A stretch of DNA of 64,000 nt from an uncultured Candidatus Saccharibacteria bacterium (GTDB lineage: Bacteria; Patescibacteriota; Minisyncoccia; Phycocordibacterales; UBA9973), in contig CAYYXE010000001.1 of assembly GCA_964475655.1 (NCBI GenBank), positions 5,435-69,434 of the forward strand. Direction: 5' to 3'. Shown piece by piece: positions 67-45,156 of the stretch. Each line of letters starts with the position of its first letter. The stretch's first letter is position 1. A model generated the notes under the pieces. It did not search any database. It was not told the origin of the DNA and saw nothing but the letters and a program-made list of their open reading frames with translations. A program made the translations under genes and the position numbers.

Positions 67-503
67 TTGAGTCTCTTGTGAGAAGATGGTTTGTCGACTT
101 GGGCACTTTCTACGCCTATAATTTGTTCGGTTTTGTCGACGAGAATTTGGAGTTTCTTTTCTATTTCATCTATATCGGCTTGAATCAATATTTCATTTTG
201 CACTTTCAGGTCATGAATTTTATTTTCAAGTTTAGTAATCTCTTGATGCTTTTGTGCGATTTCTCGAGAAACGTCTCGTTTGTTTTGTTCACGGATCAAA
301 GAATCAATTTCATTATCTAGTCTATGTAATTTTTCTTTTGCTGCTAGAAAATTACTAATGTCGTCAATTTCTTTGGTGTACACCTCTTCTTTTTTGTAGA
401 GGAAATTTTTCATGGTGGTTGATGCATCTTCGGCTACTCTATTCTGACTATTTACCGCTTCTTTGAACTCTTTGCTGTTGAAATTAAATTTTTCGGATGA
501 CAT
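63..503 (-). CDS. hypothetical coiled-coil protein (146 aa)
   Basis: ORF with heptad-rich K/E/L composition; no recognisable catalytic motif. Confidence 0.5.
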   Translation of the reverse strand: MSSEKFNFNSKEFKEAVNSQNRVAEDASTTMKNFLYKKEEVYTKEIDDISNFLAAKEKLHRLDNEIDSLIREQNKRDVSREIAQKHQEITKLENKIHDLKVQNEILIQADIDEIEKKLQILVDKTEQIIGVESAQVDKPSSHKRLN

Positions 504-522
504 ACAGTATAGAAATTATCTA

Positions 523-1515
523 TTAAAACAACGGCTGTGGAGCATAGCTCGCAGGGGCCTTACTGATATATTCTTCAATTTTTTCTGGGTGAAGCAAGCC
601 TTCTTGTGCGCCCACATACTGCACGACTGACATAGAGTTTACGGGGCCCCACATGAGGGCTTCGGGGATCGACTTGCCCATGAGGAGTGCTGCAGAGACG
701 GTAGAGGCAAACGCATCGCCGGCACCGGTGCGTTCAAACGGATCGTGTGGATAGACTGGCATAAACCACGCTTGTACACCATCGGATGCATATGCGCCAT
801 TGATGCCGTCAGTGATAAAGACGAGCTTTGGGCCGAGCTTGTGAAGCGCCTTGATGAGCATGGGAAGCTCCTTTTCTTCAGTATTGAGGATCTTCTTTGC
901 TTCCTCCAGATTACAGAAAAACGCATATGTGTTGGCATAGAGGTCTTTGAGTACTTCAATTCCGAGTTTGATTTGAAACGTGCCAGGCTGAAAGACCAGC
1001 TTCATATCAAGATGTGCCTTTACATACTCAGCGATTTCTTGGTGGTACTTCTCGGTGTGGTCGCCAAGCGAGGAGAGGTAGAGCATCTTGGGAGCAACAG
1101 GGATGCTCGGCATCATGACGGGGTATGACTGATGCTTGACGAGGATGGTGCGCTCGACCCCGTACCAGAGCACGTAGTGGTAGTTGGTCGGGATGTTTTC
1201 GTGAGAGTAGACGTAGTGTGTATCAACGCCATTCTTTTTGAGCTCTTCGATCGCCTCCGTACCATGGAGGTCCTTGCCGACATGGGCAAGCAGCGATGAC
1301 TTTAGCCCGAGGCGTGCTGCGGCTACTGCTGCATTTGCACTGTTTCCCACAGCCCGGATTTCTTGGACTGATTCGTAGGGTACTTTGTCGCCAAAGCGAA
1401 CACAGAGCTTGCAGTTGGTCTGATCGAGATCGCAGTGCGCTTCGGCATCTTTGAGCTTGATAAATGCGTCAGTCACAATGTCCCCGATGGCGAGGAAGTC
1501 AATTTGGTTTTCCAT
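523..1515 (-). CDS. PfkB-family carbohydrate/ribokinase-like sugar kinase
   Basis: 330 aa; C-terminal anion-hole motif TGAGDAF typical of ribokinase/PfkB superfamily. Confidence 0.8.
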   Translation of the reverse strand: MENQIDFLAIGDIVTDAFIKLKDAEAHCDLDQTNCKLCVRFGDKVPYESVQEIRAVGNSANAAVAAARLGLKSSLLAHVGKDLHGTEAIEELKKNGVDTHYVYSHENIPTNYHYVLWYGVERTILVKHQSYPVMMPSIPVAPKMLYLSSLGDHTEKYHQEIAEYVKAHLDMKLVFQPGTFQIKLGIEVLKDLYANTYAFFCNLEEAKKILNTEEKELPMLIKALHKLGPKLVFITDGINGAYASDGVQAWFMPVYPHDPFERTGAGDAFASTVSAALLMGKSIPEALMWGPVNSMSVVQYVGAQEGLLHPEKIEEYISKAPASYAPQPLF

Positions 1516-1550
1516 GAAAGAAGTATATAAAATAAGCCTCTAAATATACA

Positions 1551-1579
1551 TTGACATTTAATATAATGTATGCTATTAT
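1551..1579 (+). promoter_or_regulatory. sigma70-like promoter (TTGACA-17nt-TATTAT) for lipoprotein gene 1620..1988
   Basis: -35 TTGACA 1551-1556, -10 TATTAT 1574-1579; region homologous to promoter upstream of 17278 gene. Confidence 0.5.
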
Positions 1580-1619
1580 ATAGATATAAAATTCTTTCCA
1601 AACACTTAAATAAACGATA

Positions 1620-1988
1620 ATGAAAAATGTAGTCTTTATTTTGTTTTTTGCAGTAGCATTTTCTTCTTGCAACACATCTTTTTCTGGCGACACTACTTGT
1701 TTAGTACAAATGTATGACCCATTCCAAATAGCTGGAATAAACAGCGAAGGTAAGGTTGTTCAAAAATTAACGCAGGTAAAAATCAGAAAGGCTGACACAG
1801 AGAAACTTCACGAAGGCCAGGATGTATGGTTGTATCAATATTACAACAGTAATATGGGTGAAGCATCAGAATGGAGGGTGGTAAAATATAACCGATACGG
1901 TATTGACACTACTATCATCGAAGAAGTTATGCCGAACTATGGCGCCAAGACCAGTACCTATAAAAAAGCAAGGTTGGTAAAACTGTAA
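1620..1988 (+). CDS. small putative lipoprotein (signal peptide + SSC lipobox), AT-rich
   Basis: MKNVVFILFFAVAFSSC...; low GC island between normal-GC genes. Confidence 0.55.
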   Translation: MKNVVFILFFAVAFSSCNTSFSGDTTCLVQMYDPFQIAGINSEGKVVQKLTQVKIRKADTEKLHEGQDVWLYQYYNSNMGEASEWRVVKYNRYGIDTTIIEEVMPNYGAKTSTYKKARLVKL

Positions 1989-2053
1989 AAATTACAAAAA
2001 ATCATTCATAAACCGGTTTAAAAGCCGGTTTATTTTTATGCTACACTTCCACT

Positions 2054-4594: not shown

Positions 4595-4607
4595 AGACCA
4601 GGACTTT

Positions 4608-4889
4608 TTAATGAGTACTGGTCTTGCTGCGTTTCTTTTTTACTCTTTCATATTGATAATCTACAAGACTTCTGAAAAAATCGTTCAATAAATCAAAAAT
4701 AATCCAAAATATTGATCCAACCAAAACAGAAGAAGAGATGAATACCCCTAAGGTATTTGCGTGTGTGCTTTTATCAGAAAAATAGTTTAGACAAACTAAT
4801 GAGCAAAATATGATGCCAATGCTAAATACTAATTTAAGGCTTGTAAAAAACAATCTACTACCAAGAGTAAATGAAGGATCTTGTTTCAT
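4608..4889 (-). CDS. hypothetical small membrane protein (AT-rich)
   Basis: 93 aa, two hydrophobic segments, AT-rich codon usage. Confidence 0.4.
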   Translation of the reverse strand: MKQDPSFTLGSRLFFTSLKLVFSIGIIFCSLVCLNYFSDKSTHANTLGVFISSSVLVGSIFWIIFDLLNDFFRSLVDYQYERVKKKRSKTSTH

Positions 4890-4943
4890 AATTTTTTCTT
4901 TACTATAAAATAATAAACCAATTAAGTCAATCCTATTGTCGAT

Positions 4944-4972
4944 TTTACAAACCTATCATTTTTGTGTATAGT
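4944..4972 (+). promoter_or_regulatory. promoter TTTACA-17-TATAGT upstream of rplY
   Basis: -35 4944-4949, -10 4967-4972. Confidence 0.45.
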
Positions 4973-4980
4973 AGTGCCCT

Positions 4981-7197: not shown

Positions 7198-7226
7198 TTG
7201 AATGAATTGAAGCTCTATGCTATAGT
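7198..7226 (+). promoter_or_regulatory. promoter TTGAAT-17-TATAGT for rpmE
   Basis: -35 7198-7203, -10 7221-7226. Confidence 0.5.
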
Positions 7227-7234
7227 AGCCTCCT

Positions 7235-7504: not shown

Positions 7505-8485
7505 TTGGAGTACACTGAGAGCGGCTTTTGCAGTACCATGGACCTCGACTCACTCAAACAAAATCACAAGACCCACTACCTCGCCACCGAATACGAGCGG
7601 CTCTTGAAACAAGAAGAAGAAGTGCACGCACTCATTGCAAGCGATGAGTCTATGAAGGACATCGCCGCTGACGAGCTTGCATCGCTCCAGGTCCAAAAGT
7701 CTGCCATAGAAGACCAGATCAAGGCTATCGAAGCTGCCGAAAAGGAGGAAGAAGAATTTCCCAACGAAATCATCCTCGAAGCGCGCTCGGGTGCAGGAGG
7801 AGATGAAGCAGCGCTCTTTGCGACCGAGCTTGTGGCCATGTATGAAAAGTTTGCTGATATGCGCGGGTGGAAGACCAAGCATATCGACGACTACACGCTT
7901 GAGATCCATGGCAAGGACGTGTACAAGCTCTTGCGCTACGAGACTGGCGTACACCGCGTCCAGCGAGTGCCGGTGACCGAAAAGATGGGTCGCATTCATA
8001 CGTCGACTGCATCGATCGCCATACTCCCGATCCGCAAAAAGACGAAGTTTGTGATCAATCCTGCAGATCTCGATATGGAGTACTCGCGCTCAGGAGGTGC
8101 GGGCGGCCAAAACGTCAACAAAGTCGAGACAGCGGTGCGTCTGATCCACAAGCCCACTGGTATTGATGTGCGCTCGACGAGTGAACGCAGCCAGCTTGCA
8201 AACAGAGAGAAGGCGCTCATGATCCTCACCGCCAAGCTCCAACAGCTCAAAGAAGAAGAAGAGGCGCAAAAGTACTCCGGCGACCGCAAAAATCAAATCG
8301 GCACTGCAGATCGCTCCGAAAAGATCCGCACCTACAACTTCCCCCAAGACCGCGTCACCGACCACCGCATCCGCCAAAACTTCTCCAATATCGAAGGCAT
8401 CATGCTCGGCAAAATAGACAAGATCATCGATGCCATGCAGGCCGGAGAGGTGGGTGAGGCGAGTGGTGACGACTCGGACGAATAG
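7505..8485 (+). CDS. prfA: peptide chain release factor 1
   Basis: GGQ motif ([11 protein letters not shown]) and RF1-type PVT tripeptide (RVPVTEK). Confidence 0.9.
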
Positions 8486-8593
8486 CATTTTTGGCGCCGA
8501 GCGACTTCTTCCTGCGGAAGTCGCTCTTGTCCTCAGAAAATCATTTTGCTTCACAAAAACCAAGCTGATTTTCTTGCGGCCGCGCCAAAAATG
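8486..8593. other. structured intergenic element: long-range inverted repeat (CATTTTTGGCGCC / GGCGCGCCAAAAATG) enclosing 10-bp hairpin GAGCGACTTC/GAAGTCGCTC
   Basis: Direct complementarity; lies between prfA stop and tRNA promoter. Confidence 0.45.
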
Positions 8594-8619
8594 CTATTCG
8601 TCCTTTGTTTGACTATGAC

Positions 8620-8658: not shown

Positions 8659-8730
8659 GCGTGTATAGTTCAGTGGTAGAACGCTGTCCTGATAAGACAG
8701 AGGTCCATGGTTCGATTCCATGTACACGCA
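8659..8730 (+). tRNA. tRNA-Ile (anticodon GAT), CCA not encoded
   Basis: Cloverleaf readable: acceptor GCGTGTA/TACACGC, anticodon loop CTGATAA, T-arm CATGGTTCGATTCCATG. Confidence 0.85.
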
Positions 8731-14707: not shown

Positions 14708-15222
14708 ATCGCGCGACTATCGTACGCCCAGTGCAGGAGTGCTTGGCGTTGCTTGGGTCGGCAGTGTATGTCCCCTGGTCTGCAATGCGCCTGTACTTGC
14801 CCAACGTGTCTGCGGATCGCCTTCCAACGCTTGATCTGACGTGCGTCTTCGATAGGTATGCGCCGGCCCATGTAGTAGCGGCAGTACCACTGAAACCATC
14901 CTCTAGGATCGTCCTTGTATATCCATCCCTTTGCTTGCCACACTGAGAGCGGCTGGCTTGCATTTACTCCAAAGTAGTTGATCGACTTTTCGTGATGGGT
15001 GCTACAGAGTTTGGACTGCTTGAACCAACTTTTGGGAAATTCGTCCTGACAATCAGTCATATACTTGCCGCCAAACACGCCGAGGTGCAGCATCTCTTTG
15101 GGGGTAAGTGATGGTCGAAATTCTGGGTCAAAATGTTTACCCATAGGCTCAGAAAGCACGTACGTGTACTTCTTTTGCATTTTGTCGTTGACTACTACTT
15201 TTTTCATATACGCAGTATACAC
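14704..15222 (-). CDS. conserved hypothetical protein (GWFQWYCRYYMGRR motif), family not assigned
   Basis: 172 aa ORF with Trp-rich conserved-looking core; 4-nt overlap with rluB-like stop. Confidence 0.5.
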   Translation of the reverse strand: MYTAYMKKVVVNDKMQKKYTYVLSEPMGKHFDPEFRPSLTPKEMLHLGVFGGKYMTDCQDEFPKSWFKQSKLCSTHHEKSINYFGVNASQPLSVWQAKGWIYKDDPRGWFQWYCRYYMGRRIPIEDARQIKRWKAIRRHVGQVQAHCRPGDIHCRPKQRQALLHWAYDSRAI

Positions 15223-15274
15223 AACGAAGGTTTTAACTCCTCCATGTGTTGGTGCAAAATTGCTATACTAAAGC

Positions 15275-15892
15275 ATGTTCAACCTCACTCCATCCGAAGC
15301 AAAGCTTTTCAAGAAGCTCAATACCCCTGCCAAGATTCAGGACTTTTTGAATTCTATTTCATACAACTTTGAGAAAGGTGGTGAGACGTGCAGGAGTCCT
15401 CGAGAAGTGCTCAAGGTAAAGTGTGCGCATTGCCTCGAGGGTGCGTACTTTGCGGCAGCGGTGCTGTGGTATCACGGAGAGAAGCCACTACTCCTTGATC
15501 TCCGGAGTACCAAGCATGATCTCGATCATGTAGTTGCAGTATTCCGAAGGAATGGGTGCTATGGAGCAATATCGAAGACCAATCACGCAGTGCTCCGCTA
15601 TCGTGAGCCCATCTATCAGACACTGCATGAGCTCGTACTCTCCTACTTTCACGAATATTTCCTCGATGATGGGCAAAAGACGCTGCGTGAATACTCCAAG
15701 CCATTTGATCTGTCAAAGTTTGGAGACGAGTGGATTACCAGTACGGATGACCTGTGGGAGATCGGAGCCTTACTCGACGATGCGCCACACAACGCTATCT
15801 TGCCGCAACGTATGAATCCTAAGTCTCTTCGTAAGGCTGACAAGGTTGAGATAGAGGCGGGTAAGCTAGTAGAATATACATCGTCTCTATGA
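15275..15892 (+). CDS. hypothetical protein with papain/C39-like Cys-His arrangement (putative cysteine peptidase fold)
   Basis: KCAHCLEGAYFAAAVLWYHG ... DLDHVVAVF ... spacing like C39/transglutaminase-like domains; inference only. Confidence 0.4.
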   Translation: MFNLTPSEAKLFKKLNTPAKIQDFLNSISYNFEKGGETCRSPREVLKVKCAHCLEGAYFAAAVLWYHGEKPLLLDLRSTKHDLDHVVAVFRRNGCYGAISKTNHAVLRYREPIYQTLHELVLSYFHEYFLDDGQKTLREYSKPFDLSKFGDEWITSTDDLWEIGALLDDAPHNAILPQRMNPKSLRKADKVEIEAGKLVEYTSSL

Positions 15893-16830
15893 GTATGAAG
15901 AAAAAGAAGCACATAGCTCTTAGCCTTCTTGCACTTGGTGCGGCTGTTGTCATTGGTGGGTACGTGGTGACAAAGCAGGACCAGGTCGCTCCGCAACCTG
16001 CAATATCTGATGTGCAGACAGACGTACTCCCTACTACCCCTGAGCCTACACAAACTGTAGACGAAGTCGTACCACCTGATGGTCAGACATATAGATCGAT
16101 CAAAGTCGTCACCGATCAGCCGGGCTATGAGATCTCACGCGAAGTCGGACTTGCCAATGTCCCCTTTGTGCTGAGCTTCAACCGCATGGACGAAAAGCAT
16201 ATCCAAAAGAACTCCACAATCACCATCCCTCCGACATTTACGGATTGGGATTCACTTTCCCCCTTCCCCCGAGAGCTTCCTGTCGCACAAGATATCGACA
16301 AGCTTCTCTTGGTCTCGCAGCGCATCCAGGCAGTCGGCGCATATGAGCGCGGCACGCTCGTGCGTTGGATGGTCACCAGTACGGGCAAGAAAGAAACGCC
16401 GACCCCAAGCAAGCTCTACTTTACCAACTGGAAGGGTAAGCTCGTGACAAGTACGCTCGAAGGCGGCTACATCTTGCCGTGGGCATTCAACCTCGACAGT
16501 ATGGAAGGTATTGCGATGCACCAATTTGATCTGCCCGGATTTCCTGCAAGTCACGCATGTGTGAGACTACTGGAAGCGGATGCAATGTGGATCTATGATT
16601 GGGCAAATCAATGGATACTCGATGCAAGCGGTCAAAATGAGCTCGCGAAAGGCACCCCAGTCATCATCTTTGGCAAATATGCCTATGACAAACGAGCTCC
16701 TTGGAAAAACCTTGCCACTGATCCAACCGCGACGACACTTACGGTAGCTGAGCTGACTGAAGTCCTAAACAAAAATATCAATGAGATCAAAGCTGCTGCG
16801 GAGAAAAGAGTGGATGTAGAAAATCAATAA
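15889..16830 (+). CDS. L,D-transpeptidase (YkuD domain) with N-terminal membrane anchor
   Basis: Catalytic HxxSHACVRL motif (MHQFDLPGFPASHACVRL); 4-nt overlap with upstream gene. Confidence 0.75.
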   Translation: MSMKKKKHIALSLLALGAAVVIGGYVVTKQDQVAPQPAISDVQTDVLPTTPEPTQTVDEVVPPDGQTYRSIKVVTDQPGYEISREVGLANVPFVLSFNRMDEKHIQKNSTITIPPTFTDWDSLSPFPRELPVAQDIDKLLLVSQRIQAVGAYERGTLVRWMVTSTGKKETPTPSKLYFTNWKGKLVTSTLEGGYILPWAFNLDSMEGIAMHQFDLPGFPASHACVRLLEADAMWIYDWANQWILDASGQNELAKGTPVIIFGKYAYDKRAPWKNLATDPTATTLTVAELTEVLNKNINEIKAAAEKRVDVENQ

Positions 16831-16840
16831 AGAAGAAATA

Positions 16841-16868
16841 AAAAAGCTGCAAATTTGCAGCTTTTAAT
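16841..16868. terminator. bidirectional rho-independent terminator (AAAGCTGCAAA/TTTGCAGCTTT)
   Basis: Perfect 11-bp palindrome flanked by A- and T-runs between convergent genes. Confidence 0.7.
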
Positions 16869-16885
16869 GAAATTAAACAAAATTT

Positions 16886-17278
16886 TTATTTGCCAGCTTC
16901 TCTAACCACTGGAATACCCCAATCATCAATGATTACTCCTTTCCGCACTATGTAAGTCATAGATGTATCGATAGGAAGATCTTTAATAATTGCAACCCTG
17001 AATTCAGGTTTTCCGGGACCCTCACTTACCAAGGCCTGATAGTAGTGTTTTTCATCCTTTAAATGAAAGTGTGTTGTTACAGCATCTTTAAATGTTAGTT
17101 TAACACGAAGATTGTCTTTTAAGTTTCCGTATAAACTTTTGTAGGCATTTAAGGAGTCACGGCATTCTTGAATTTCTTTTTGTAATTGAGAAATCCCCTT
17201 ATTATCTTCATTGTCCTCGCAGGATACAAATAATGTTGTAATAGCTGCAAAAAGCAGAAATAAAAATACTTTTTTCAT
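16886..17278 (-). CDS. small putative lipoprotein (LFVSC lipobox), AT-rich
   Basis: MKKVFLFLLFAAITTLFVSC...; driven by repeated promoter module. Confidence 0.55.
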   Translation of the reverse strand: MKKVFLFLLFAAITTLFVSCEDNEDNKGISQLQKEIQECRDSLNAYKSLYGNLKDNLRVKLTFKDAVTTHFHLKDEKHYYQALVSEGPGKPEFRVAIIKDLPIDTSMTYIVRKGVIIDDWGIPVVREAGK

Positions 17279-17318
17279 GTTTATCGTTTTTATTTTTTAC
17301 AAAGAATTTTATAAATAT

Positions 17319-17347
17319 ATAATATCACATTTACTTATAAAAGTCAA
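17319..17347 (-). promoter_or_regulatory. promoter TTGACT-17-TATTAT for lipoprotein gene 17278
   Basis: minus-strand -35 at 17342-17347, -10 at 17319-17324; homologous to promoters at 1551 and 45157. Confidence 0.5.
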
Positions 17348-17351
17348 TACA

Positions 17352-17382
17352 CAAAAAAGCCCTATCGCTAAGGCTTTTTTGA
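17352..17382 (-). terminator. terminator downstream of lexA (AAAAAAGCC...GGCTTTTTT), part of repeated terminator-promoter module
   Basis: Short GC stem with A/U extension plus U-tract; near-identical copy at 45193. Confidence 0.5.
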
Positions 17383-17393
17383 CTGAGTATTCT

Positions 17394-17957
17394 TTAATAT
17401 TTCCGTATCACTCCTCGTATGATAGCTATCACCTGCAAGTCGTGTTTGGGATGCATGGGTTTAAACTTTTTGTTGGCGGGTTCGAGCCAGGATTTCTTGC
17501 CGTCGGTACGAAGGTATTTCATCGTGTGCTCCCCGTCGATTTGTGCGATCACGATATCGCCATCCTTGGCCACAGAGGTACGCTCTGCGATCACGATATC
17601 GCCGTCACAGATGTGCTCGTCGATCATGGAATCTCCATCGACTTCTACCATATAGGTCTCCTTCTTCTTTTTGACCAGATAGCTTTCGAGGTTGAGTGTC
17701 TCGAGTACTTCGTCGACTGCTGATGGGAATCCCGCTTTGACTGAGCCGAGCAGCGGCAAGCTATCAAATGAATTGGTCGGCAGAAGCTTGCCAAGCTTGT
17801 CTTTGGTGACGATACCGGCATCGATGAGCTTCTCCACAAGTCGTGCCACCGCATTCTTGCTTTTGTACCCAAAGAGCTTCATCATCTCGGTGTACGTCGG
17901 CATACGCTTGTGTGACTCGTGGAAGTCTATGAGTTGTTGTTTGTGGTTGCCTTCCAT
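17394..17957 (-). CDS. lexA: LexA repressor
   Basis: wHTH N-domain, Ala-Gly cleavage site (VKAGFP), S24 peptidase Ser (GDSM) and Lys. Confidence 0.85.
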   Translation of the reverse strand: MEGNHKQQLIDFHESHKRMPTYTEMMKLFGYKSKNAVARLVEKLIDAGIVTKDKLGKLLPTNSFDSLPLLGSVKAGFPSAVDEVLETLNLESYLVKKKKETYMVEVDGDSMIDEHICDGDIVIAERTSVAKDGDIVIAQIDGEHTMKYLRTDGKKSWLEPANKKFKPMHPKHDLQVIAIIRGVIRKY

Positions 17958-20475: not shown

Positions 20476-20567
20476 ATAGTGAGTACAGTATAGCGATTTT
20501 GGAGCGAGCGGACAATGAATATTGACAATTAATTTAAGTCATGTTAATATATTAAAAATTTACAATA

Positions 20568-20975
20568 ATGAAAATACGAACAATAACTACTGAAGCAGAA
20601 ATGAGTCTTGAACAACTAACTGCTGTTTTAAGACATGCTGGATTGTTGGTTAGAAATCAAGTAATCCACGAAATCAGCAGAGATTTAAATGGAATCCGAT
20701 TCACAATTACTGAGCAGGTTGATCAAGAATTTACAACATCCGGCCGAGTATTTACTGAAAAAGAAGAAAAAATTATTTGCAGTAAATCACTCGAGGATTT
20801 AAATCTTAGTGTGAGAGCGTTTAATTGCCTAAAAGCTTCCAAGATAAATTCTTTAAGACAACTTCTGGATTATTCAGAGGAAGACTTAACAAAATTTCGA
20901 AATTTTGGAATGAAATCTATTTCAGAAATTAAAGAAGTTCTTACCAAGCTAGGGTTAAGCCTCAATTCTAATTGA
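20568..20975 (+). CDS. stand-alone RNA polymerase alpha C-terminal-domain (alphaCTD)-like protein with unknown 70-aa N-domain
   Basis: C-terminal LEDLNLSVRAFNCLKASKINSLRQLLDYSEEDLTKFRNFGMKSISEIKEVLTKLGLSL matches alphaCTD (ELTVRSANCLK...GKKSLTEIK...GLSL); AT-rich. Confidence 0.7.
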   Translation: MKIRTITTEAEMSLEQLTAVLRHAGLLVRNQVIHEISRDLNGIRFTITEQVDQEFTTSGRVFTEKEEKIICSKSLEDLNLSVRAFNCLKASKINSLRQLLDYSEEDLTKFRNFGMKSISEIKEVLTKLGLSLNSN

Positions 20976-20986
20976 AAAAACTTTCA

Positions 20987-21026
20987 AACCACTTTACTTT
21001 TAAATAAGTCGAGTGGTTTTTTTTAT
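20987..21026 (+). terminator. rho-independent terminator (AACCACT...AGTGGTT + T8)
   Basis: 7-bp stem plus TTTTTTTT after alphaCTD-like gene. Confidence 0.7.
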
Positions 21027-21159
21027 TATCCATCTTTGGGAGCAAAACCCTCGCCTTCAGGCGATCCCTTCAGGATATTGTGGTTTGTGAGTGTCGTTCG
21101 AAAAAGAATGTCTCTAGACACTAAGTCACTCTTTGTGACTATACTTCGCACTTCAGTGC

Positions 21160-21189
21160 AAAACTGAAACTTCCGTCTTTAGACGGAAG
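21160..21189 (-). terminator. terminator of ftsW (CTTCCGTC/GACGGAAG stem + U-tract on minus strand)
   Basis: 8-bp perfect stem 4 nt after ftsW stop. Confidence 0.6.
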
Positions 21190-21193
21190 TGGT

Positions 21194-25830: not shown

Positions 25831-27264
25831 TTTCTTCTCTACTTTTTTGAGCACGATGTTGAGCTCGTCGAGTTGTTTTTGGGAGACTTCGCTTGGTGCG
25901 TGCATCATAGGGTCCTTCCCTTCTCCAGTTTTCGGGAATGCCATGACTTCGCGGATGTTGGGTTCGTCAAGGAGAAGCATCATGAGGCGGTCAAATCCCC
26001 ATGCGATGCCTCCGTGTGGAGGGGTGCCGGTCTTAAACGCCGTGAGCATGTGAGAGAAGTTTGCCTCAATGTCTTCCATACTATGACCGAGGATTTCAAA
26101 TACCTTTGCGAGTGCGTCATAGGTGTGATTGCGGATTGATCCCCCGCCGATCTCGTAGCCGTTGAGCACGATGTCGTACTGAGTCGTGAGGATAGATCCG
26201 ATATCTTTTTTGTTCATGAGGTTGTCCATATGCTCAGGGATGGGGCGAGAAAACGGGTTGTGTGTGTAGGTCCATGAACCAGTTGCATCAGGATTGTCAG
26301 ACTTACTGGTCTCTTCAAAAAATGGGAAATCTACTACCCAACAAAATGCGAGCGTGTTGGGATCGTTTTTGTCTTGACGAATGTCTGGTCGGTCAGTACC
26401 GTACTTGCTCATGGCATCGGCATATGAAATGCGTGGGAATGGGATTTGCTGGATCTTCTTTTCTGGGAAAAACTTCTGCACGATGTCGATCAGGAGCTTT
26501 TCGTTGACGTTCATCACATCATCACGGTCGACAAAGGAGAGTTCCATATCGAGCTGGGTGAACTCTGGCTGGCGATCACCGCGTCCGTCTTCGTCGCGCA
26601 TGCACTTGGCAAATTGGAAGTATCGTTCCACACCTGCGCTCATCAGGAGCTGCTTGTACTGCTGCGGAGACTGCGGGAGTGCATAAAACGTGCCTGGGTA
26701 GAGACGTGCAGGGACGATGTAGTCACGCGCACCTTCCGGAGTAGACTTGGTAAGGATGGGCGTTTCTACTTCGATAAATTTCTCTGCATGGAGTGCATTG
26801 CGCAAATGCTGTACTACGGTGTCGCGCATGCGCATGTTGCGTTGCATGCGAGCACTTCTGAGGTCAAGGTAGCGGTGTGCAAGGCGTACTTCTTCGCTCA
26901 CTTCTCGTGTGTCGACGTTGATCTCAAATGGAAGCGGCTCGGCGTAGTTGAGGATTTCGATACCAGTCACTTCAAGCTCGATGTCGCCGTTTTGTTTGTC
27001 AGCTTGCACATTGCGTTCGGGGCGCTTGTTCACGATGCCTTCTACTCGCACTACGGTCTCAGGACGCGCAGTCTTGGCTATCTCGATCACCTCAGGACGA
27101 TTGGGCAGCACGACGCCTTGAATGTAGCCAGTCATATCTCGGAAGTCAAAAAAGACCATTTTGCCCTGGTCGCGGCGGACGTCGATCCATCCTTTGATCA
27201 CTACTGTCTCCCCTGCTTTCGCTCCCAAATCGCTAATATATGTGCGCTCCATAGTGCTTTCCAT
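25828..27264 (-). CDS. aspS: aspartate--tRNA ligase, compact bacterial-type (no GAD insertion domain evident)
   Basis: Class II motifs FYALPQSPQQYKQLLM, FRDEDGRGDRQPEFTQLDME, GGIAWGFDRL; start at MESTMERTY (ORF upstream extension looks non-coding). Confidence 0.85.
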   Translation of the reverse strand: MESTMERTYISDLGAKAGETVVIKGWIDVRRDQGKMVFFDFRDMTGYIQGVVLPNRPEVIEIAKTARPETVVRVEGIVNKRPERNVQADKQNGDIELEVTGIEILNYAEPLPFEINVDTREVSEEVRLAHRYLDLRSARMQRNMRMRDTVVQHLRNALHAEKFIEVETPILTKSTPEGARDYIVPARLYPGTFYALPQSPQQYKQLLMSAGVERYFQFAKCMRDEDGRGDRQPEFTQLDMELSFVDRDDVMNVNEKLLIDIVQKFFPEKKIQQIPFPRISYADAMSKYGTDRPDIRQDKNDPNTLAFCWVVDFPFFEETSKSDNPDATGSWTYTHNPFSRPIPEHMDNLMNKKDIGSILTTQYDIVLNGYEIGGGSIRNHTYDALAKVFEILGHSMEDIEANFSHMLTAFKTGTPPHGGIAWGFDRLMMLLLDEPNIREVMAFPKTGEGKDPMMHAPSEVSQKQLDELNIVLKKVEKK

Positions 27265-27299
27265 AGTTTTTGCATTGTGCCATAAAATGAGGAATAAAA

Positions 27300-27327
27300 A
27301 AAGCCCCGCGGGATATCGGGGCCTAAC
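27300..27327 (-). terminator. hairpin GCCCCG...CGGGGC + U7 on minus strand, 35 nt upstream of aspS start
   Basis: 6-bp GC stem followed (minus strand) by TTTTTTT. Confidence 0.55.
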
Positions 27328-27356
27328 TACTGATGAATCAGTGGTTTGTAATGTTT

Positions 27357-27599
27357 TTACGCAATTTCTATTCGCCAAAATACCAAAATGCTTTTTACAA
27401 TAGCAATAAATTGTTTTGATGCACATTCTCTTTTTTCTTTGAAATGTGCAAAGTAAGATTCTTTTGCTATCGAAAGATTAGTTATATTTTTGGGGATCGA
27501 AACGTGCTCTCCTTCTGTTTGTGCTTTTTGGAGATCACGTATGGGGACACCGGTGGCGAGGTTGATGTCAGAGAGATTAAGATTTTGGAGTATGTTCAT
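27357..27599 (-). CDS. candidate small protein (80 aa) downstream of M16 peptidase; coding status uncertain
   Basis: ORF MNILQNLNLSDINLATGVPIRDLQKAQTE... bounded by two terminator hairpins; no obvious SD. Confidence 0.25.
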   Translation of the reverse strand: MNILQNLNLSDINLATGVPIRDLQKAQTEGEHVSIPKNITNLSIAKESYFAHFKEKRECASKQFIAIVKSILVFWRIEIA

Positions 27600-27651
27600 A
27601 AAGAGTTGGTTTTTTAAAAATATTACCACCCGTACATTTTTTGTCAAAAAA

Positions 27652-27671
27652 CCCGGGACTGTGTCCCGGGG
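27652..27671 (-). terminator. terminator hairpin CCCGGGAC/GTCCCGGG + U-tract immediately after M16 peptidase stop
   Basis: 8-bp perfect stem then TTTTTTG on minus strand. Confidence 0.65.
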
Positions 27672-27676
27672 ATACT

Positions 27677-28954
27677 TTAAAAATACTTTTCTGAACATTT
27701 TTTACCATTAACGATAATATGACAGTTATCGAGAGTAATATACTTTTTTAAAACTTCATGTATTTCTTCTGGACTTACGTTTTCCATAAAGTTATACCAA
27801 TCAGTGAAATCTTCTATCAAAGGGGTATCCTCAGGATATAAGTCAGAAAATTCATTTACAAAGTTTCTTGATGTTTGAATCTCTCGTATATCTGAAAACC
27901 ATTCCGTAACAAGTTTATCACGGTATTCTTTTTGAGATATTCCCTCTGAAAGAAGTTCTGTATAGCATTCAAAGATCGAATCAAGCAACAGGTCTGTTTT
28001 TTCGGGAGCAGTACCTGCAGTAGTCCCAGTGTACATCAAATGGTTAAGTGCAATTCTGGGAGAACCTAGACCATATACCAAGCCACGTTCATTCCGAAGT
28101 TTTTTGTAAAACCTTGAAGATAAACCGTCATGTGCATACTCTAGAGCAAATCTAAGAATAATACTCTCTCTCGAAGCTAAAACTGGTCCATCAAACCCAA
28201 CTACTACTCTTGTTTGCTCAAGATTCTGTTCAAGAAAAATTCTTGAACCCGAAGCAATCCGCTTGGGAGGGTCTGGGAGAAATTTTTTAATACCACACAA
28301 GAAATTGATATCTGAAAATGTTTTTTTGACATCGTCTACAGTACATCCACCAGCTATAACAAGTAGCATATTTTCAACAGTACAATGAGATCTAAAAAAA
28401 TTTTCAACGTTGATTGGCAACATAGCTACTATTGATTCTTTTGTACCCAAATTTGAATTACTCCAATTGGTACCATTTCCCCAAATAGACGCAAAAGAGA
28501 GACTTGAAATATACTCAGATTTCGAAAGATTTTGAAGTAACTCAGAAGTTATCACACCGATTTCTTTTTGATGTGACTGGGGAGTTATATATAATCCTGA
28601 CAAAGCTTCAGAGTAGTATTCTTTCATATTACTCATATGTTCAGGTATCGCCACTTCACATTCAATAGACATTTGGTCACGACCTGTGCGTGCGTTTGAG
28701 TGTCCACCGATTGAATCTATTATTCCTGCAAATGCTTCCTTTGTAGGATATTTGTTTGATCCAGATACAATAACGTGTTCTGTAAAGTGCGCCAGGCCAC
28801 TATCTCCATCATTAAATACAGATCCTGCACGCATGAGAATATTGGCAAAAATAGGACCGGAGGATCTTTGGATAAAAACAACCTTCAATCCATTTTCTAA
28901 TACGAGCTCGTGCTTCGTAACACCAAAATCATCGAGTGAATAGTTTCTTTTCAT
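27677..28954 (-). CDS. M16-family zinc peptidase (insulinase/pitrilysin-like)
   Basis: Inverted zinc motif HFTEH with downstream Glu; 425 aa; AT-rich. Confidence 0.75.
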   Translation of the reverse strand: MKRNYSLDDFGVTKHELVLENGLKVVFIQRSSGPIFANILMRAGSVFNDGDSGLAHFTEHVIVSGSNKYPTKEAFAGIIDSIGGHSNARTGRDQMSIECEVAIPEHMSNMKEYYSEALSGLYITPQSHQKEIGVITSELLQNLSKSEYISSLSFASIWGNGTNWSNSNLGTKESIVAMLPINVENFFRSHCTVENMLLVIAGGCTVDDVKKTFSDINFLCGIKKFLPDPPKRIASGSRIFLEQNLEQTRVVVGFDGPVLASRESIILRFALEYAHDGLSSRFYKKLRNERGLVYGLGSPRIALNHLMYTGTTAGTAPEKTDLLLDSIFECYTELLSEGISQKEYRDKLVTEWFSDIREIQTSRNFVNEFSDLYPEDTPLIEDFTDWYNFMENVSPEEIHEVLKKYITLDNCHIIVNGKKCSEKYF

Positions 28955-29022
28955 TATTTAAGTTTTTAACGTTTTACAAAATTGTTTATTAAAATAATAA
29001 CATAAATTTATTAAAAAGCAAA

Positions 29023-29601
29023 TTAAGATTTTTGGGCTATGAAATGAAACACATGCCAGTGTTTCGGGGTACCTACAGCAGTAGTTCCGTCTTTTTCTTC
29101 TTCTACAAATTCAATAAGTTCGAGATCTGACAGCATGTTTTGAGCTTCTTCTTTGGTTTGAAATGCAAGAGCTGCATCCGGTGTATTCCACTGGTCTCGA
29201 TCCCCAAATAATTGTCCAACAAATATCCCTTCTCGCTTTAGAGACACAACACAATTTTTCATAAATGCAGCAAAGCCGTCTTTTCCATAAAACGGAAGTG
29301 CGTATTGAGCATTAATAAGGTCATACGTATTGGGTACAAGTGTAAAATCTTGAAATGGTACATTTGCTAATGTAAATTTTGCAGAAGTAATACACATCGC
29401 AAATTCTTTGGATTGTGGTGAGCTATCGACTGCCGTCACCTGGTCAAAGCCTGCTTCCAAAAGATACTTTGATTCGATTAGTGTTCCGGCGCCAAGATCG
29501 AGAGCAGAGTTTCTATCTGGACAAATTTCAACAGCACGAACAAGTTGTTCTCGAGGCTTACGAGTTGCGTGTACTTTTGCGTATGTTTCCCAGTTTGCCA
29601 T
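29023..29601 (-). CDS. small class I SAM-dependent methyltransferase (TehB-like size/architecture)
   Basis: Motif I LDLGAGTL; acidic motif II VDSS; 192 aa. Confidence 0.7.
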   Translation of the reverse strand: MANWETYAKVHATRKPREQLVRAVEICPDRNSALDLGAGTLIESKYLLEAGFDQVTAVDSSPQSKEFAMCITSAKFTLANVPFQDFTLVPNTYDLINAQYALPFYGKDGFAAFMKNCVVSLKREGIFVGQLFGDRDQWNTPDAALAFQTKEEAQNMLSDLELIEFVEEEKDGTTAVGTPKHWHVFHFIAQKS

Positions 29602-29605
29602 ATGT

Positions 29606-31408
29606 TTACGCCATTAAGATCTGATTCTTAATCAATTTCTGATATTCTTTATTTTTCTTTTCAAGCTCAGCATGGGTTCCCTGTCCGACGATCTTACCTT
29701 CTGATACGACAAAGATAATATCAGCATCCATTACGGTGGAAAGTCGATGTGCAATGATAATCGTGGTGCGACCAGCTGCTGATCGGTTGATCGCATCATG
29801 GATGAGCTTCTCATTGATCGAGTCGAGTGCTGAGGTTGCCTCGTCAAAGATGAGGATCTTGGGGTCTTTGATAAGTGCTCGTGCGATGCCGATGCGTTGA
29901 CGTTCTCCACCTGAGACTTTGATACCACCTTCACCTATCACAGTGTCGAGTCCGTGATCTTTGAGCTTGACGACAAAGTCAGTAAGCGATGCATCCTCGA
30001 CTGCTTTTTGAAGTTTCTCTTCACTTACTTCTACCCCCGAAGGAATTCCAAACAATATGTTGTCTCTGATACTTCGGTCAAAGAGTTCAATCTTTTGTTC
30101 GACGTTGCCGATCTGAGAGCGAAGCCAGTGAAGGTCAAGCTCCTTGAGTGGCTCGCCATCAATCAAGATCTCACCTTCTGTGGCGTCATAATAGCGACGC
30201 ATAAGGTTTACGATAGTACTCTTGCCAGATCCAGATACACCGACAAATCCCACTTTTGCTCCGGGAGGGATTTTGAAACTTACCTCTGCAATCGTATGCT
30301 CAAGTTCATTTCCATCTGATTCTTCTTCATTTTCAATTTGCTGCGCTGATTGCCGGTATGGGTATGCGAAGCTTACCTTCTTGAATTCAATTTCACCTTT
30401 GAGCTCAGAGATAGTCTTGCCACCGATGTTGGGATTTATATCTGGTTCTATATCAAGAAGATCAAAATACTTTTTAATTTCAACTGTTTGGAACATTAGT
30501 CGACGCTGTGTATTCATAATATTATTGATATTGTCAAAAATTGATCCTGTCCATGCGTAAAATGTTACAAACATACCGACTGAGTGATATCCCTTAAAAA
30601 TAAAATAAATACCGACACCTAATGTTAGATATCTTCCGAGAAGAAGAATAATTTTGGAGCCATAGTATTCTTTTATATATGTGAGCCATGTTTTAATTGT
30701 AAAATCAGTAACTTTTTCGTACGCTATTTCGAAATCGCTCACTGTTTTATCTTCCTGTGCTTCTGCAATAACAAGCGTTGAATTTCTAAAAAGTTCTGAC
30801 TGCAACTTTGATTGCGATTGGTTCTTTTTACGCACTTCGTCCACTCGAGGGTAGTATCGAATATTTCGGTTGTATGCAATAAGTATGTGGAGCAATACAA
30901 ATATAAATGCTACTAATCCAGCTTTCCAATCAAATATAAAAAGAATGACAAATGTTACCAAAATCTGAATACCTGTTTGGAGCAGATCATAAATAAACAT
31001 ATTTACTGTATTGATCAGTGAATTCTGTCCTTTATTAACTATGGTCTGCTTCACACCTGAGTGTTCGTTGATGTGTTGACCTATCGAGAATTGAAACATT
31101 CTCTTGAGTGAGATCACAGAGAGTGCCTTATCGATATTTGCGTCGAGTTTTTTGATGTCAATGTATTCTTTGATATACCAGACAACCTGCTGCTGCAAAA
31201 TTGCAATGCCAAATGATGTGGCTAAAAAGATAATAGTGAGCCGAGCATCTCCTTTAATGATTGCATCAACACCCTTTCCAAATAAATATGGAGTAAATGT
31301 TGCAAATACCTGAACAATAGCAATTAAAGCTGCTGTAATAATGAAATATTTCCAAAAAGGTTTAAAAAATTGTATTGTTCTGTGCAAAAAACTTTTCTTT
31401 TTATTCAT
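29606..31408 (-). CDS. ABC exporter, fused permease + ATPase (type I exporter, MsbA/MdlB-like)
   Basis: 6-TM N-domain; Walker A GVSGSGKST, signature VSGGERQR, Walker B ILIFDEATSALD, H-loop IIAHRL. Confidence 0.85.
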   Translation of the reverse strand: MNKKKSFLHRTIQFFKPFWKYFIITAALIAIVQVFATFTPYLFGKGVDAIIKGDARLTIIFLATSFGIAILQQQVVWYIKEYIDIKKLDANIDKALSVISLKRMFQFSIGQHINEHSGVKQTIVNKGQNSLINTVNMFIYDLLQTGIQILVTFVILFIFDWKAGLVAFIFVLLHILIAYNRNIRYYPRVDEVRKKNQSQSKLQSELFRNSTLVIAEAQEDKTVSDFEIAYEKVTDFTIKTWLTYIKEYYGSKIILLLGRYLTLGVGIYFIFKGYHSVGMFVTFYAWTGSIFDNINNIMNTQRRLMFQTVEIKKYFDLLDIEPDINPNIGGKTISELKGEIEFKKVSFAYPYRQSAQQIENEEESDGNELEHTIAEVSFKIPPGAKVGFVGVSGSGKSTIVNLMRRYYDATEGEILIDGEPLKELDLHWLRSQIGNVEQKIELFDRSIRDNILFGIPSGVEVSEEKLQKAVEDASLTDFVVKLKDHGLDTVIGEGGIKVSGGERQRIGIARALIKDPKILIFDEATSALDSINEKLIHDAINRSAAGRTTIIIAHRLSTVMDADIIFVVSEGKIVGQGTHAELEKKNKEYQKLIKNQILMA

Positions 31409-31411
31409 GTT

Positions 31412-44427: not shown

Positions 44428-44758
44428 ATAGTGATTATACCACGAATGTCAAATAAAGAAACCACCCAGAAACTGAGTGGTTTTTTCTCAAACAATAAAA
44501 CTTGCAATGAAACAAAATTTACACCTCCCCGAAGGATCTAATCATAGGCTGATGGGTTTAGTGAGAGATATTTCAAAACAAAATAGCACTCGAGGTGCTA
44601 TTTGTCAATTATCGATGACGCATTGAGACGGTCTTGCCATCTCGCTTTGCCTTCTTCTTTGCAGCAATTTTTCTCTTTTTGTTCATGGAAATACTATAGC
44701 ATAAATTGGAAATAAAAAAAGCCTTTTAGTTTTTCAAAAGGCTTTTAATGAGGCGTTT

Positions 44759-45121: not shown

Positions 45122-45156
45122 ATTTAAGATTTTTAGTTAAATAACTTATTTTTTAT

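Follow-up and report, generated by a model that had tools for sequence, protein, structure and literature searches.

Predicted terminator-promoter modules head AT-rich orphan genes between core genes of a Candidatus Saccharibacteria chromosome

Module architecture

Three genes for small AT-rich proteins (P1, P2 and P3) lie between core genes in a 64-kb stretch of DNA from a gut bacterium, hereafter the window, and each of them is headed by a copy of a regulatory module (c1, c2 and c3, respectively; Table 1). We propose that the module is an insulated terminator-promoter “expression socket” that may also supply the homology through which gene cassettes are gained and replaced, and we put the probability of this reading at roughly 55%. 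We observed a family of related sequences, the folding of its hairpins with changes that preserve the base pairs, an insertion that can be set against empty sites, the replacement of cargo genes at one slot, and the relocation of one unit. Actual termination and initiation, the route of recombination and the roles of the cargo proteins are what we infer. Our confidence is higher for the terminator and promoter functions and for the facts of insertion and replacement, and it is lower for the role of the module as a recombination patch.

Judging from sequence matches, the source organism is a Candidatus Saccharibacteria bacterium of the candidate phyla radiation (CPR; Patescibacteria). The syntenic matches to the dnaK region, at 75–76% nucleotide identity, are metagenome-assembled genomes labelled Candidatus Saccharibacteria, and the LexA homologues carry the label Patescibacteria. 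The scaffold flanks of the window (+10 kb and −4 kb, about 78 kb in all) were also searched with profiles, and the related or matched loci used in the comparisons are designated by L-numbers. Because the same module sequences were found again in many independent assemblies, the modules are not an assembly artefact.

The full module, present as c2 and c3, probably consists of a hairpin that terminates transcription of the upstream core gene, a sigma70-type promoter and an A/U-rich leader. The promoter, of the form TA-TTGACT, 17 nt, (TG)n-TATTAT, begins 4–6 nt after the hairpin, and the leader, which is about 45 nt long, has no Shine-Dalgarno sequence. The c1 copy has only the promoter, the leader and the signal-peptide part because it sits in a divergent intergenic region. 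Each module appears to head a self-contained, insulated one-gene unit (promoter, open reading frame (ORF) and own terminator) for an AT-rich orphan wedged between core genes of normal base composition; the GC content of the P1, P2 and P3 cargo is 0.31–0.37, versus about 0.50 in the neighbouring genes.

An earlier, first-pass annotation of the window, made from the sequence alone, had proposed much of this layout. Its −35/−10 geometry was borne out (TTGACA-17-TATTAT plus TG in c1, TTGACT-17-TATTAT plus TG in c2, and TTGACT-17-TATTTT in c3), as was its description of the downstream genes as coding for AT-rich small proteins, two with a lipobox (FSSC and FVSC) and one polytopic. Its suggestion that the modules serve envelope proteins only did not survive the comparison with other loci, where three related cargos were found to lack a signal peptide. 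Searches of Pfam, PHROGs and NCBIfam with eight cargo proteins returned no significant family, and for P2 they returned only signal-peptide-type matches.

Relationships among c1, c2 and c3

The c2 and c3 copies share a 26-nt terminator hairpin with a GNRA loop plus TATTGACTTTTAT, and in an alignment of the three regions the stretch common to both reads AAAAAGCCTTAG-NN-ATAGGGCTTTTT. The sequence AAGCCTTAGNNATAGGGCTTTTT occurs exactly twice in the window, at 17354–17376 and 45193–45215 on the minus strand, where shuffled sequences lead one to expect no occurrence, and TATTGACTTTTAT comes 4–5 nt after it in both copies. BLAST aligned c2 with c3 over 48 nt at 89.6% identity. The stretch common to c1 and c2 runs from the −35 box through the leader to about the first 11 codons. 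Here, a repeat finder paired 1550–1653 with 17245–17348 (104 nt, 71%), BLAST gave 75–77% identity over 108–111 nt reaching into the signal-peptide codons, and TATTATATANNTATAAAATTCTTT was found exactly twice in the window (1574–1597 on the plus strand and 17301–17324 on the minus strand; 0 expected). Outside the window, c2 is 82.8% identical over 93 nt to the module of locus L066, with the non-consensus leader and AAAATTCTTTGTAAA included, so that the L066 module is closer to c2 than c3 is.

These similarities were set against controls. In a comparison anchored on TTGAC, family pairs had 28–41 of 53 positions in common, compared with 14–27 for other AT-rich promoters of the window and a mean of 20 (sd 3.3) for shuffled sequences. 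In addition, three leave-out profiles, M1 (c1 and its orthologues), M2 (c2 and L066) and M3 (the dnaK-site modules c3, L039 and L068A), were scored on the window, on the related loci, and on about 1 Mb of phage loci pre-selected for a match to the core. Profile M1 gave c2 33.5 bits over the full length, and the best phage promoter reached 18.7 bits over the core only. M2 scored c3 at 40 and c1 at 24.9 bits (best phage promoter, 14), and M3 scored L066 at 54, c2 at 48.8 and L043 at 40.6 bits (best phage promoter, 16.9). The score of c1 against the c3-type model was about 10 bits, below that of the best phage promoter (17 bits). By these controls, c1–c2 and c2–c3 are genuine relationships, and c1–c3 is no better than what generic strong promoters give. 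The first-pass claim of three homologous modules thus stands for c1 with c2 and for c2 with c3, on the exact repeats and the profiles, and it falls for c1 with c3, which reaches the generic level and lacks a terminator in c1; the pairwise-similarity check that accompanied the claim divides in the same way, with c1–c2 and c2–c3 above the expectation for AT-rich promoters and c1–c3 not.

The same data bear on the alternative that strong consensus promoters and ordinary terminators in AT-rich DNA simply look alike without shared ancestry. We consider it very improbable as an account of the family, even if it has a part in it. In scans of viral contigs, core-only patterns spanning the −35 to the −10 box (TATTGAC…TGnTATTATATA) matched 24 and at least 81 unrelated phage contigs, and some phage promoters agreed with c2 at 31 of 36 positions. 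Because the core matches so many phage contigs, it is, as far as its sequence tells, that of a generic strong sigma70 promoter and is no proof of homology, so that part of the similarity is convergent. In the leave-out profiles, the family-specific signal is confined to the hairpin junction, the leader and the signal-peptide parts. The exact hairpin, too, serves as a predicted terminator in unrelated phyla, and c1 does not rise above the generic background when compared with c3. Convergence leaves unexplained, however, why the leave-out profiles put the family 15–35 bits above phage promoters that had been pre-selected for the core, why c2 and L066 agree at 83% over 93 nt that include a non-consensus leader, and why the two hairpin copies in 64 kb are each followed by the same junction, which is not a chance outcome.

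Further copies of the module were not found by profile search of the window, its scaffold flanks and the relatives' loci.

The terminator hairpin

The c2 and c3 hairpins have a 13-bp stem (five A-U pairs, GCC/GGC, U-G, U-A and A-U) closed by a GNRA tetraloop. The predicted folding energy is −16.5 kcal/mol for c2 (z −4.3) and −16.6 kcal/mol for c3 (z −4.8), and across the family it ranges from −16.5 to −19.3 kcal/mol, with z from −4.3 to −7. Several base changes leave the structure intact. In strain variants of c2, the loop GCGA is replaced by GAAA and one U-A pair by U-G, and the stem stays paired. The L068 hairpin carries a U-to-C change that turns a G-U pair into G-C (−19.3 kcal/mol), and the loop of L039 is GAGA, so that the loop is always of the GNRA type among the family hairpins (GCGA, GAAA or GAGA). 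With its flanking A- and U-tracts, the hairpin is a predicted intrinsic terminator of the bidirectional type. The fusion of a terminator hairpin to a promoter, claimed earlier for c2 and c3, is upheld by the folding energies and by the shared junction. The “degraded terminator half” that had been assigned to c1 turned out to be something else: positions 1516–1560 hold no hairpin (−2.1 kcal/mol, z −0.2), and the stretch is the divergent pfkB promoter.

The exact hairpin alone is not diagnostic, and it gains its weight from recurring in 64 kb with the same downstream junction. A scan of a 596-Gb genome collection with the exact 18-nt hairpin pattern gave 42 loci in many phyla, which correspond to about 25 independent sites versus about 17 expected by chance, by our own estimate; most of the 42 matches are unrelated terminators or coding sequence in other phyla. 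Once orthologues are merged, the number of sites is thus near the chance level. Among the matches, AAGCCTTAGAAATAGGGCTT in its exact form is found again as a terminator behind tRNA genes of Lachnospiraceae and Desulfovibrio, as well as in other phyla (L029, L031, L040, L042, L050, L056 and others). Three further matches, L033, L037 and L047, had been considered as one hairpin-led cassette in three contexts, and this was rejected since they are orthologous syntenic loci; they were left out of the comparisons.

The P2 unit between lexA and ykuD

The P2 unit, of 563 bp, lies exactly between the stop codons of two convergent genes, lexA (17394–17396) and ykuD (16828–16830). We compared this junction in five related lineages picked via their LexA homologues (LexA 74–90% identical). 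In four of the five (L083/L084, L086, L088 and L196–L200), the stop codons of lexA and ykuD overlap or abut, and in the fifth (L085) the two genes are separated by a 110-nt inverted-repeat spacer that holds no cargo. Because the junction is empty of cargo in the relatives, the P2 unit is, on this comparison, demonstrably a lineage-specific insertion. YkuD ends in …ENQ* in L088, a relative with the empty site, just as it does in the window, from which it follows that the insert lies precisely between the two stop codons.

Only one homologue of P2 was found among 5.8 billion proteins. It is 62% identical and sits between different genes (L077), and the nucleotide homology between the two loci begins at the −35 box and reaches to where the terminator ends. 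Because promoter, ORF and terminator of the homologue all sit between other genes, the whole unit has changed context. The AlphaFold2 model of P2 was unusable (predicted local distance difference test score, pLDDT, 44).

The ends of the insert were inspected for traces of the joining event. The motif TATTGAYTTT occurs three times in the window, versus 0.36 expected: in two −35 boxes and at 16820–16829 on the minus strand, within native ykuD sequence abutting the insert, where it is also found in the empty site of L088. The L077 cassette is bounded on both sides by TATTGAC, exactly at the transitions between AT-rich and GC-normal DNA. Such a junction would fit a joining event in which microhomology guided a linear fragment, one that may have been excised from a tandem array of the L068 kind. 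A target-site duplication, or the integration of a circular cassette at TATTGAC, was also considered and was rejected for the window copy, given that the right-hand repeat is native to ykuD and the hairpin falls beyond the repeat.

The strains themselves show signs of exchange near this locus. Relative to L004, which is otherwise 99–100% identical, the window carries short patches of 79–89% identity at 14850–16250, in ykuD and its neighbour, and at 17370–17445, the latter a small divergent tract that covers the lexA 3′ end and the hairpin. This mosaic is typical of recombination.

The dnaK-dnaJ slot

The c3 module and P3 occupy the spacer between dnaK and dnaJ, which we compared in four species (the window, L039, L066 and L068). 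The c3 hairpin is conserved behind dnaK in all three of the other loci. The left block of the spacer, from the hairpin to about the −10 box, is 86–94% identical, versus about 75–76% for dnaK DNA, and the right block is 81–87% identical at the nucleotide level. Between them, from just past the −10 box to the cargo terminator, lie 300–1000 nt that are unrelated in each species, and the cargo proteins share no similarity across the four species. At this site, the hairpin and promoter are the conserved resident part and not the mobile part. In L068, two tandem cassettes repeat the promoter, the leader and the signal peptide before unrelated mature proteins. Of the three window promoters, that of c3 has the weakest −10 box.

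A third site points the same way: in L043, the same hairpin and promoter stand behind the GAPDH gene and head another orphan gene, and the gap between GAPDH and rpiB is 1 nt in species with P1 orthologues.

The spacer holds several other small elements. Between the variable slot and dnaJ is an ORF for a highly basic 25-aa peptide (44609–44686, minus strand; MNKKRKIAAKKKAKRDGKTVSMRHR) that shares the 81–87% identity of the right block in the four species and has no match in Pfam or NCBIfam; its product could be a small protein associated with the ribosome or with nucleic acids. Just upstream of dnaJ, at 44581–44608 (minus strand), an inverted repeat TAGCAC-N5-GTGCTA lies within a TTGACA-17-TATTTT promoter and resembles a shortened operator of the CIRCE/HrcA type, of which it is a candidate only. 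In L039, the tiny basic ORF of the dnaK-dnaJ spacer is followed by another ORF, of about 120 aa (about 460–820, minus strand), whose likeness to PemK/MazF-type toxins was noted by eye only.

The P1 locus and the question of paralogy

P1 has orthologues at 80% and 57% identity at the same pfkB-P1-aldolase site, in at least three species, with the promoter and leader conserved; the c1 promoter is conserved at the orthologous loci L079, L080 and L078. Homologue searches with P1 returned syntenic orthologues only. The AlphaFold2 model of P1 is all-beta (pLDDT 75) and had no fold match in PDB.

Plain paralogy with selection could account for some of these data. According to this explanation, the family goes back to the duplication of a small ancestral gene for a lipoprotein together with the dnaK terminator, after which purifying selection kept the promoter, the leader and the signal peptide, and the surface-exposed mature parts diverged beyond recognition, so that the module would have no role in gene movement. 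The similarity between c1 and c2 does reach into the signal peptide, both P1 and P2 are lipoproteins with mature parts of about 105–110 aa, and the L068 tandem pair looks like a local duplication. In comparisons across species, moreover, P1 itself is less well conserved than its promoter. At equivalent positions, P1 and P2 have a weak co-linear motif in common, GK..E[FW]RV…IDT[ST], which would be compatible with distant paralogy; alignment of the mature parts with hhalign, however, gave a probability of 0.6%, and BLASTP E-values were 0.035–0.5. Paralogy also has difficulty with modules that have the same leader and head proteins without any signal peptide (L066 and L043), and it accounts neither for the insertion between lexA and ykuD beside empty sites nor for the fact that, at the orthologous dnaK slot, a single conserved module is followed by differing cargos. 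We therefore regard it as rather doubtful.

Expression signals

The cargo genes differ from the core genes of the window in how they appear to be expressed. Most core genes have an extended −10 box (TGnTAnnnT) 5–9 nt before the ATG and no Shine-Dalgarno sequence (e.g. 2036–2053, 4964–4980, 7218–7234, 44687–44700 and 43428–43445), an arrangement that suggests predominantly leaderless mRNAs in this Saccharibacterium. The cargo genes have a full −35/−10 promoter and an A/U-rich leader of 40–50 nt. Because the cargo genes are leadered and the core genes are of the leaderless type, the module represents a distinct expression class in this genome. Tight coupling of a terminator to the next promoter occurs in the window behind cargo terminators (TTTTT…TGCTATAGT-ATG).

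The leader itself raises the question of regulation. A conserved segment of leader and promoter, such as AAAATTCTTTGTAAA at about +1 to +15, could be an operator or an RNA-level control site of a single regulator that keeps unrelated genes under common control, and the signature of a regulon would then be what the copies have in common. The motif sits at the predicted transcription start and is kept in c1, c2, L066 and L079; it is degenerate in L043 and L068, and it is absent from c3 and L039. The similarity spans 90–110 nt and includes the terminator and the signal-peptide codons, far beyond what an operator needs. A search of the window against Rfam found one tRNA only and no match in the modules, and the leader is almost all A/U, with no stable fold potential by inspection. 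A regulon signature is, in our judgement, very improbable.

Proposed mechanism

In the mechanism that we favor, the hairpin would stop transcription of the upstream core gene. The T-tract of the terminator, at about −41 to −46, occupies the place expected for an UP element and probably contributes to promoter function. The near-consensus promoter and the A/U-rich leader would direct the expression of a single-gene unit with a terminator of its own at the end. As the only sequence common to otherwise unrelated cassettes, the module may then act as a homology or microhomology patch in recombination, either RecA-type or illegitimate, with DNA taken up by natural transformation. Cargo ORFs would in this way be inserted (c2), replaced behind a resident module (c3, at the dnaK-dnaJ slot) or duplicated in tandem (L068), and the neighbouring operons would remain undisturbed. 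What points to a homology patch is the position of the breakpoints between conserved and unrelated sequence, which fall just past the −10 box at the dnaK slot, about 20 nt into the leader in c2 versus L066, and after the signal peptide in c1 versus c2 and in L068A versus L068B.

Saccharibacteria are capable of natural transformation and take the DNA into the genome through homologous recombination, and an engineered promoter-ORF-terminator cassette was tolerated between convergent genes in these bacteria (PMC10633639). The site of that engineered cassette has the same convergent-gene layout as that of the P2 insert.

A true mobile element with its own machinery, similar to a miniature inverted-repeat transposable element, a transposon or an integron, would require a dedicated recombinase acting on the hairpin or on the TATTGAC core. 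In favor of such an element, TATTGAY flanks P2-type cassettes left and right in two independent contexts, cassettes stand in a tandem array in L068, and a hairpin beside a junction recalls attC-type sites. The genes called in the window and the flanking loci, however, include no integrase, transposase, relaxase or phage gene; the ends of the P2 insert have no terminal inverted repeats and no target-site duplication; and the copy number is low. The right-hand TATTGAT, moreover, belongs to the native coding sequence of ykuD and is found in an empty site as well, and the hairpin is located outside the repeat. No match to phage genomes was returned by BLAST for the P1 and P2 units, no PHROG was significant, and the viral scans, which were used as a negative control, gave no evidence of phage origin. 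A self-mobilizing element is, on balance, highly improbable.

The corresponding proposals of the first-pass annotation fared unevenly. That the module is a miniature mobile element is not sustained, with no terminal inverted repeats, target-site duplication or recombinase in the window and with three copies in about 78 kb; the check for target-site duplications that it had recommended found none, the right-hand repeat being native ykuD sequence. The comparison of insertion sites in relatives, also recommended, was productive, with the lexA-ykuD junction empty of cargo in five lineages and the dnaK-dnaJ contents replaced. The idea of a portable cassette between housekeeping genes is retained for the insertion and relocation of P2 and for the dnaK slot, where the cargo differs per species, and given up for c1, which is vertically stable.

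Several results weigh against the expression-socket reading. The evidence for promoter and terminator function consists of consensus matches and folding, and a simple terminator scanner flagged neither the c2 nor the c3 hairpin, a miss that arises because the U-tract pairs with the upstream A-tract and is taken as part of the stem. The promoter core, as described above, is generic. The L077 homologue of P2 has no hairpin, so that hairpin and promoter do not always travel together. Judging from its orthologues, c1/P1 is old and vertically inherited at one site, with no sign of mobility. Copy number is low (three in about 78 kb of this genome), and each GTDB Saccharibacteria genome matched has only one exact hairpin, when a recombination system would be expected to leave more. 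A metagenome scan with a pattern of hairpin plus −35 box, in a collection without the window's own species, returned nine matches, of which only L068 was relevant. The microhomology argument is post hoc, made after the data had been seen, and the mechanism as a whole rests on a handful of loci.

A bolder extension of the expression-socket reading is that Saccharibacteria, and perhaps other competent CPR bacteria, maintain recombinase-free “cassette sockets”, in which the module and a conserved block delimit a slot (e.g. dnaK-dnaJ) through which lineages keep exchanging orphan genes by way of transformation and recombination over short homologies. We offer it tentatively, as something that could hold although the odds are against it. 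If it were true, it would be a chromosomal counterpart of the shuffling known for a promoter-stem-loop element of phages (described below), many of the exchanged orphan genes would be surface or membrane proteins, and the process would generate a strain-specific repertoire of small proteins for an epibiotic lifestyle.

Comparison with known systems

The closest known analogue of the arrangement is the PeSL (promoter-early stem-loop) of T4-type phages, and what we describe may be regarded as a regulatory cassette of the PeSL or moron kind that resides in the chromosome of a Saccharibacterium. PeSLs are composites of about 100 bp in which a strong sigma70-like promoter is combined with a terminator stem-loop and with AT-rich sequence upstream of the −35 box, and in one subclass the stem-loop, too, lies upstream of that box; they flank small orphan genes in variable regions, and relatives differ by having orphans inserted, deleted or replaced next to a PeSL (Arbiol et al. 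2010, PMC2839356). Crossovers have been located either in the stem-loop or in the interval from the −10 box to the ATG, recombination between PeSLs gives rise to cassettes as circular DNA, and the cassettes are transcriptionally insulated (PMC2839356). The likeness lies in the promoter with an adjacent stem-loop in c2 and c3 (at the level of sequence only; 10/12 and 9/12 consensus positions, z below −4; c1 has no stem-loop), in the replacement of orphans at the dnaK slot in four species and the lexA-ykuD insertion versus empty sites, and in the crossover positions, which match the breakpoints seen at the dnaK slot. The differences are that the host here is a CPR chromosome with core bacterial genes and not a T4-type phage, that there are two or three copies per about 78 kb whereas PeSLs are clustered in dense arrays in hyperplastic regions, with orphans flanked on either side, that the stem is GCCUUA/UAGGGC with a GNRA loop and not GGGG…CCCC, and that the module is mostly one-sided, with both sides of a cassette occupied only in the L068 tandem pair.

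The P2 unit also resembles a phage moron in having its own promoter and terminator, a deviant base composition, and a position between genes that are adjacent in relatives. Phage morons were reportedly set out by Hendrix/Juhala in 2000. They are independent promoter-gene-terminator units (PMC3594210). Unlike them, the P2 unit is not in a phage or prophage (no phage matches and no significant PHROG), and morons are not defined by shared flanking regulatory sequence, whereas the units here share a module.

The definition of putative mobile promoters, or promoter propagation, asks for at least 50 nt at 80% identity or more in the stretch from −150 to −50 relative to the start codon (Matus-Garcia et al. 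2012, PMC3488235). In our case, too, homologous upstream regions precede non-homologous coding sequences, within and between genomes, with pfkB, lexA and dnaK as the upstream genes. In length and identity, c2–c3 (48 nt at 89.6%) and c1–c2 (75–77%) just miss these thresholds, and only the between-genome pair c2–L066 (93 nt, 82.8%) reaches them; in addition, the similarity of c1 and c2 differs in extending into coding sequence, that of the P1 and P2 signal peptides. In promoter-coupled terminators, transcription ends no more than 35 bp upstream of the start site of the next unit (the mode is about 10 bp), and the stem-loop doubles as the −35 box (Fletcher et al. 2026 preprint, 10.64898/2026.08.19.745784). 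The module is similar in combining a terminator and the next promoter in one short intergenic stretch between tandem genes, but its T-tract ends 4–6 nt before a separate −35 box, which gives c2 and c3 a predicted spacing of about 40 nt.

With integrons, whose cassettes are promoterless, the dnaK slot has in common a resident promoter with interchangeable cargo, and L068 a tandem array; it differs in that no intI is among the genes annotated in the window and its flanks, in that there are no attI or attC sites, and in that the cassettes have their own terminator and often their own promoter copy. Conserved 5′ regions are also a feature of variable lipoprotein gene families, such as the “upstream homology box” of Borrelia erp/ospEF and the Mycoplasma vsp/vlp genes. 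These families are multi-copy and are located on plasmids or in loci with site-specific inversion or phase variation. In both cases, the promoter, the 5′ untranslated region and the lipoprotein signal peptide are kept and the mature parts are unrelated or highly diverged (here c1 versus c2, and L068A versus L068B). The loci described here differ by their few copies, by the lack of invertible elements, and by some cargos not being lipoproteins.

Significance

CPR bacteria have tiny, streamlined genomes and yet many lineage-specific orphan genes. The loci described here provide a concrete test case for how such genes are acquired, with a defined insertion that has empty counterparts and a slot that differs in content from species to species inside a regulatory frame conserved above the level of dnaK itself. 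If the module is indeed both an expression signal and a recombination patch, the PeSL principle would extend from T4-type phages to a bacterial chromosome, and this would help to explain how genes can be added to reduced genomes without breaking operons. On the practical side, the data point to natural neutral insertion sites for Saccharibacteria, namely between convergent genes and in the dnaK-dnaJ spacer, and to a compact native terminator-promoter-leader part for new genetic tools in these bacteria. The distinction between core genes of the leaderless type and leadered cargo genes provides a lead on translation initiation in the phylum.

Table 1. Positions in the window of the modules, their predicted signals and the cargo genes.
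Feature	Position	Strand	Description
c1	1550–1653	+	Promoter, leader and signal-peptide part; no terminator relic
pfkB divergent promoter, leaderless type (predicted)	1516–1550	−	−10 TATACT at 1522–1527, 6 nt before the ATG at 1515
c1 promoter of P1 (predicted)	1551–1579	+	−35 TTGACA 1551–1556, 17-nt spacer, TG 1571–1572, −10 TATTAT 1574–1579; 11/12 consensus match
c1 leader	1580–1619	+	A/U-rich, without Shine-Dalgarno; holds AAAATTCTTT and AAACGATAA, both common to c2
P1, putative lipoprotein	1620–1988	+	122 aa, lipobox …AFSSC, GC 0.37, no known family
P1 terminator hairpin (predicted)	2008–2033	+	Extended −10 box (TGCTACACT) of the aldolase gene directly behind
P2 unit, whole	16831–17393	−	563 bp: 13 nt, hairpin, promoter, leader, ORF, terminator
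Native ykuD motif abutting the insert	16820–16829	−	TATTGATTTT (ykuD …ENQ* codons on the other strand); 9/10 positions as in the cassette −35 box TATTGACTTT
P2 terminator hairpin (predicted)	16842–16865	−	AAAAGCTGCAAATTTGCAGCTTTT; homologous hairpin behind the P2 homologue in L077
P2, putative lipoprotein	16886–17278	−	130 aa, lipobox …LFVSC, GC 0.35, near-orphan
c2	17279–17393	−	Hairpin, promoter and leader
c2 leader	17279–17318	−	A/U-rich, AAAATTCTTTGTAAA at 17310–17296, without Shine-Dalgarno; motif common to c1 and L066
c2 promoter (predicted)	17319–17347	−	−35 TTGACT 17347–17342, 17-nt spacer, TG 17327–17326, −10 TATTAT 17324–17319; 10/12 consensus match
c2 hairpin	17353–17380	−	AAAAAAGCCUUA-GCGA-UAGGGCUUUUUU; predicted bidirectional-type terminator behind lexA
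Right flank of the variable slot	44609–44716	−	T-run, extended −10 box (TGCTATAGT, TATAGT 44698–44693), 25-aa basic ORF 44609–44686
P3 terminator (predicted)	44717–44746	−	T-run opens the right-hand conserved block of the dnaK-dnaJ spacer
P3, polytopic membrane protein (predicted)	44759–45121	−	120 aa, GC 0.31, orphan
c3	45122–45242	−	Hairpin, promoter and leader
c3 promoter (predicted)	45157–45185	−	−35 TTGACT 45185–45180, 17-nt spacer, −10 TATTTT 45162–45157; 9/12 consensus match, no proper TG
c3 hairpin	45193–45218	−	AAAAAGCCUUA-GAAA-UAGGGCUUUUU; predicted terminator behind dnaK

Other variable sites

Other parts of the window and its surroundings also vary between relatives. Between ftsW and murG, within 20476–21193, an AT-rich gene (20568–20975, plus strand; GC 0.33) codes for a stand-alone homologue of the C-terminal domain of the RNA polymerase alpha subunit and has its own TATTGACA promoter; the gap between ftsW and murG is 10 nt in relatives, and strain L006 has a different ORF of 195 aa there. 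A 386-nt AT-rich insert at 4595–4980, between the genes for a flavin adenine dinucleotide (FAD)-dependent oxidase and ribosomal protein L25, holds an orphan ORF of 93 aa (4608–4889, minus strand) with its own TTGACT-17-TATAGT promoter. It is absent in L079–L082, where the gap is 42 nt, and L078 has a different ORF of 82 aa.

An AT-rich island of 4.4 kb at about 27200–31600 codes for an M16-family peptidase, an S-adenosylmethionine (SAM) methyltransferase and an ABC exporter, and it looks like a horizontally acquired cluster for peptide processing and export. To the left of the window (L009/L010/L079), the N- and C-terminal halves of transketolase are separate genes with strain-variable small ORFs (DUF1653 and orphans) between them, which makes this another variable slot. 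Finally, a perfect 22-nt inverted repeat has its arms at 8476–8497 and 8582–8603, 84 nt apart, just upstream of the window's only tRNA gene (8659–8730).

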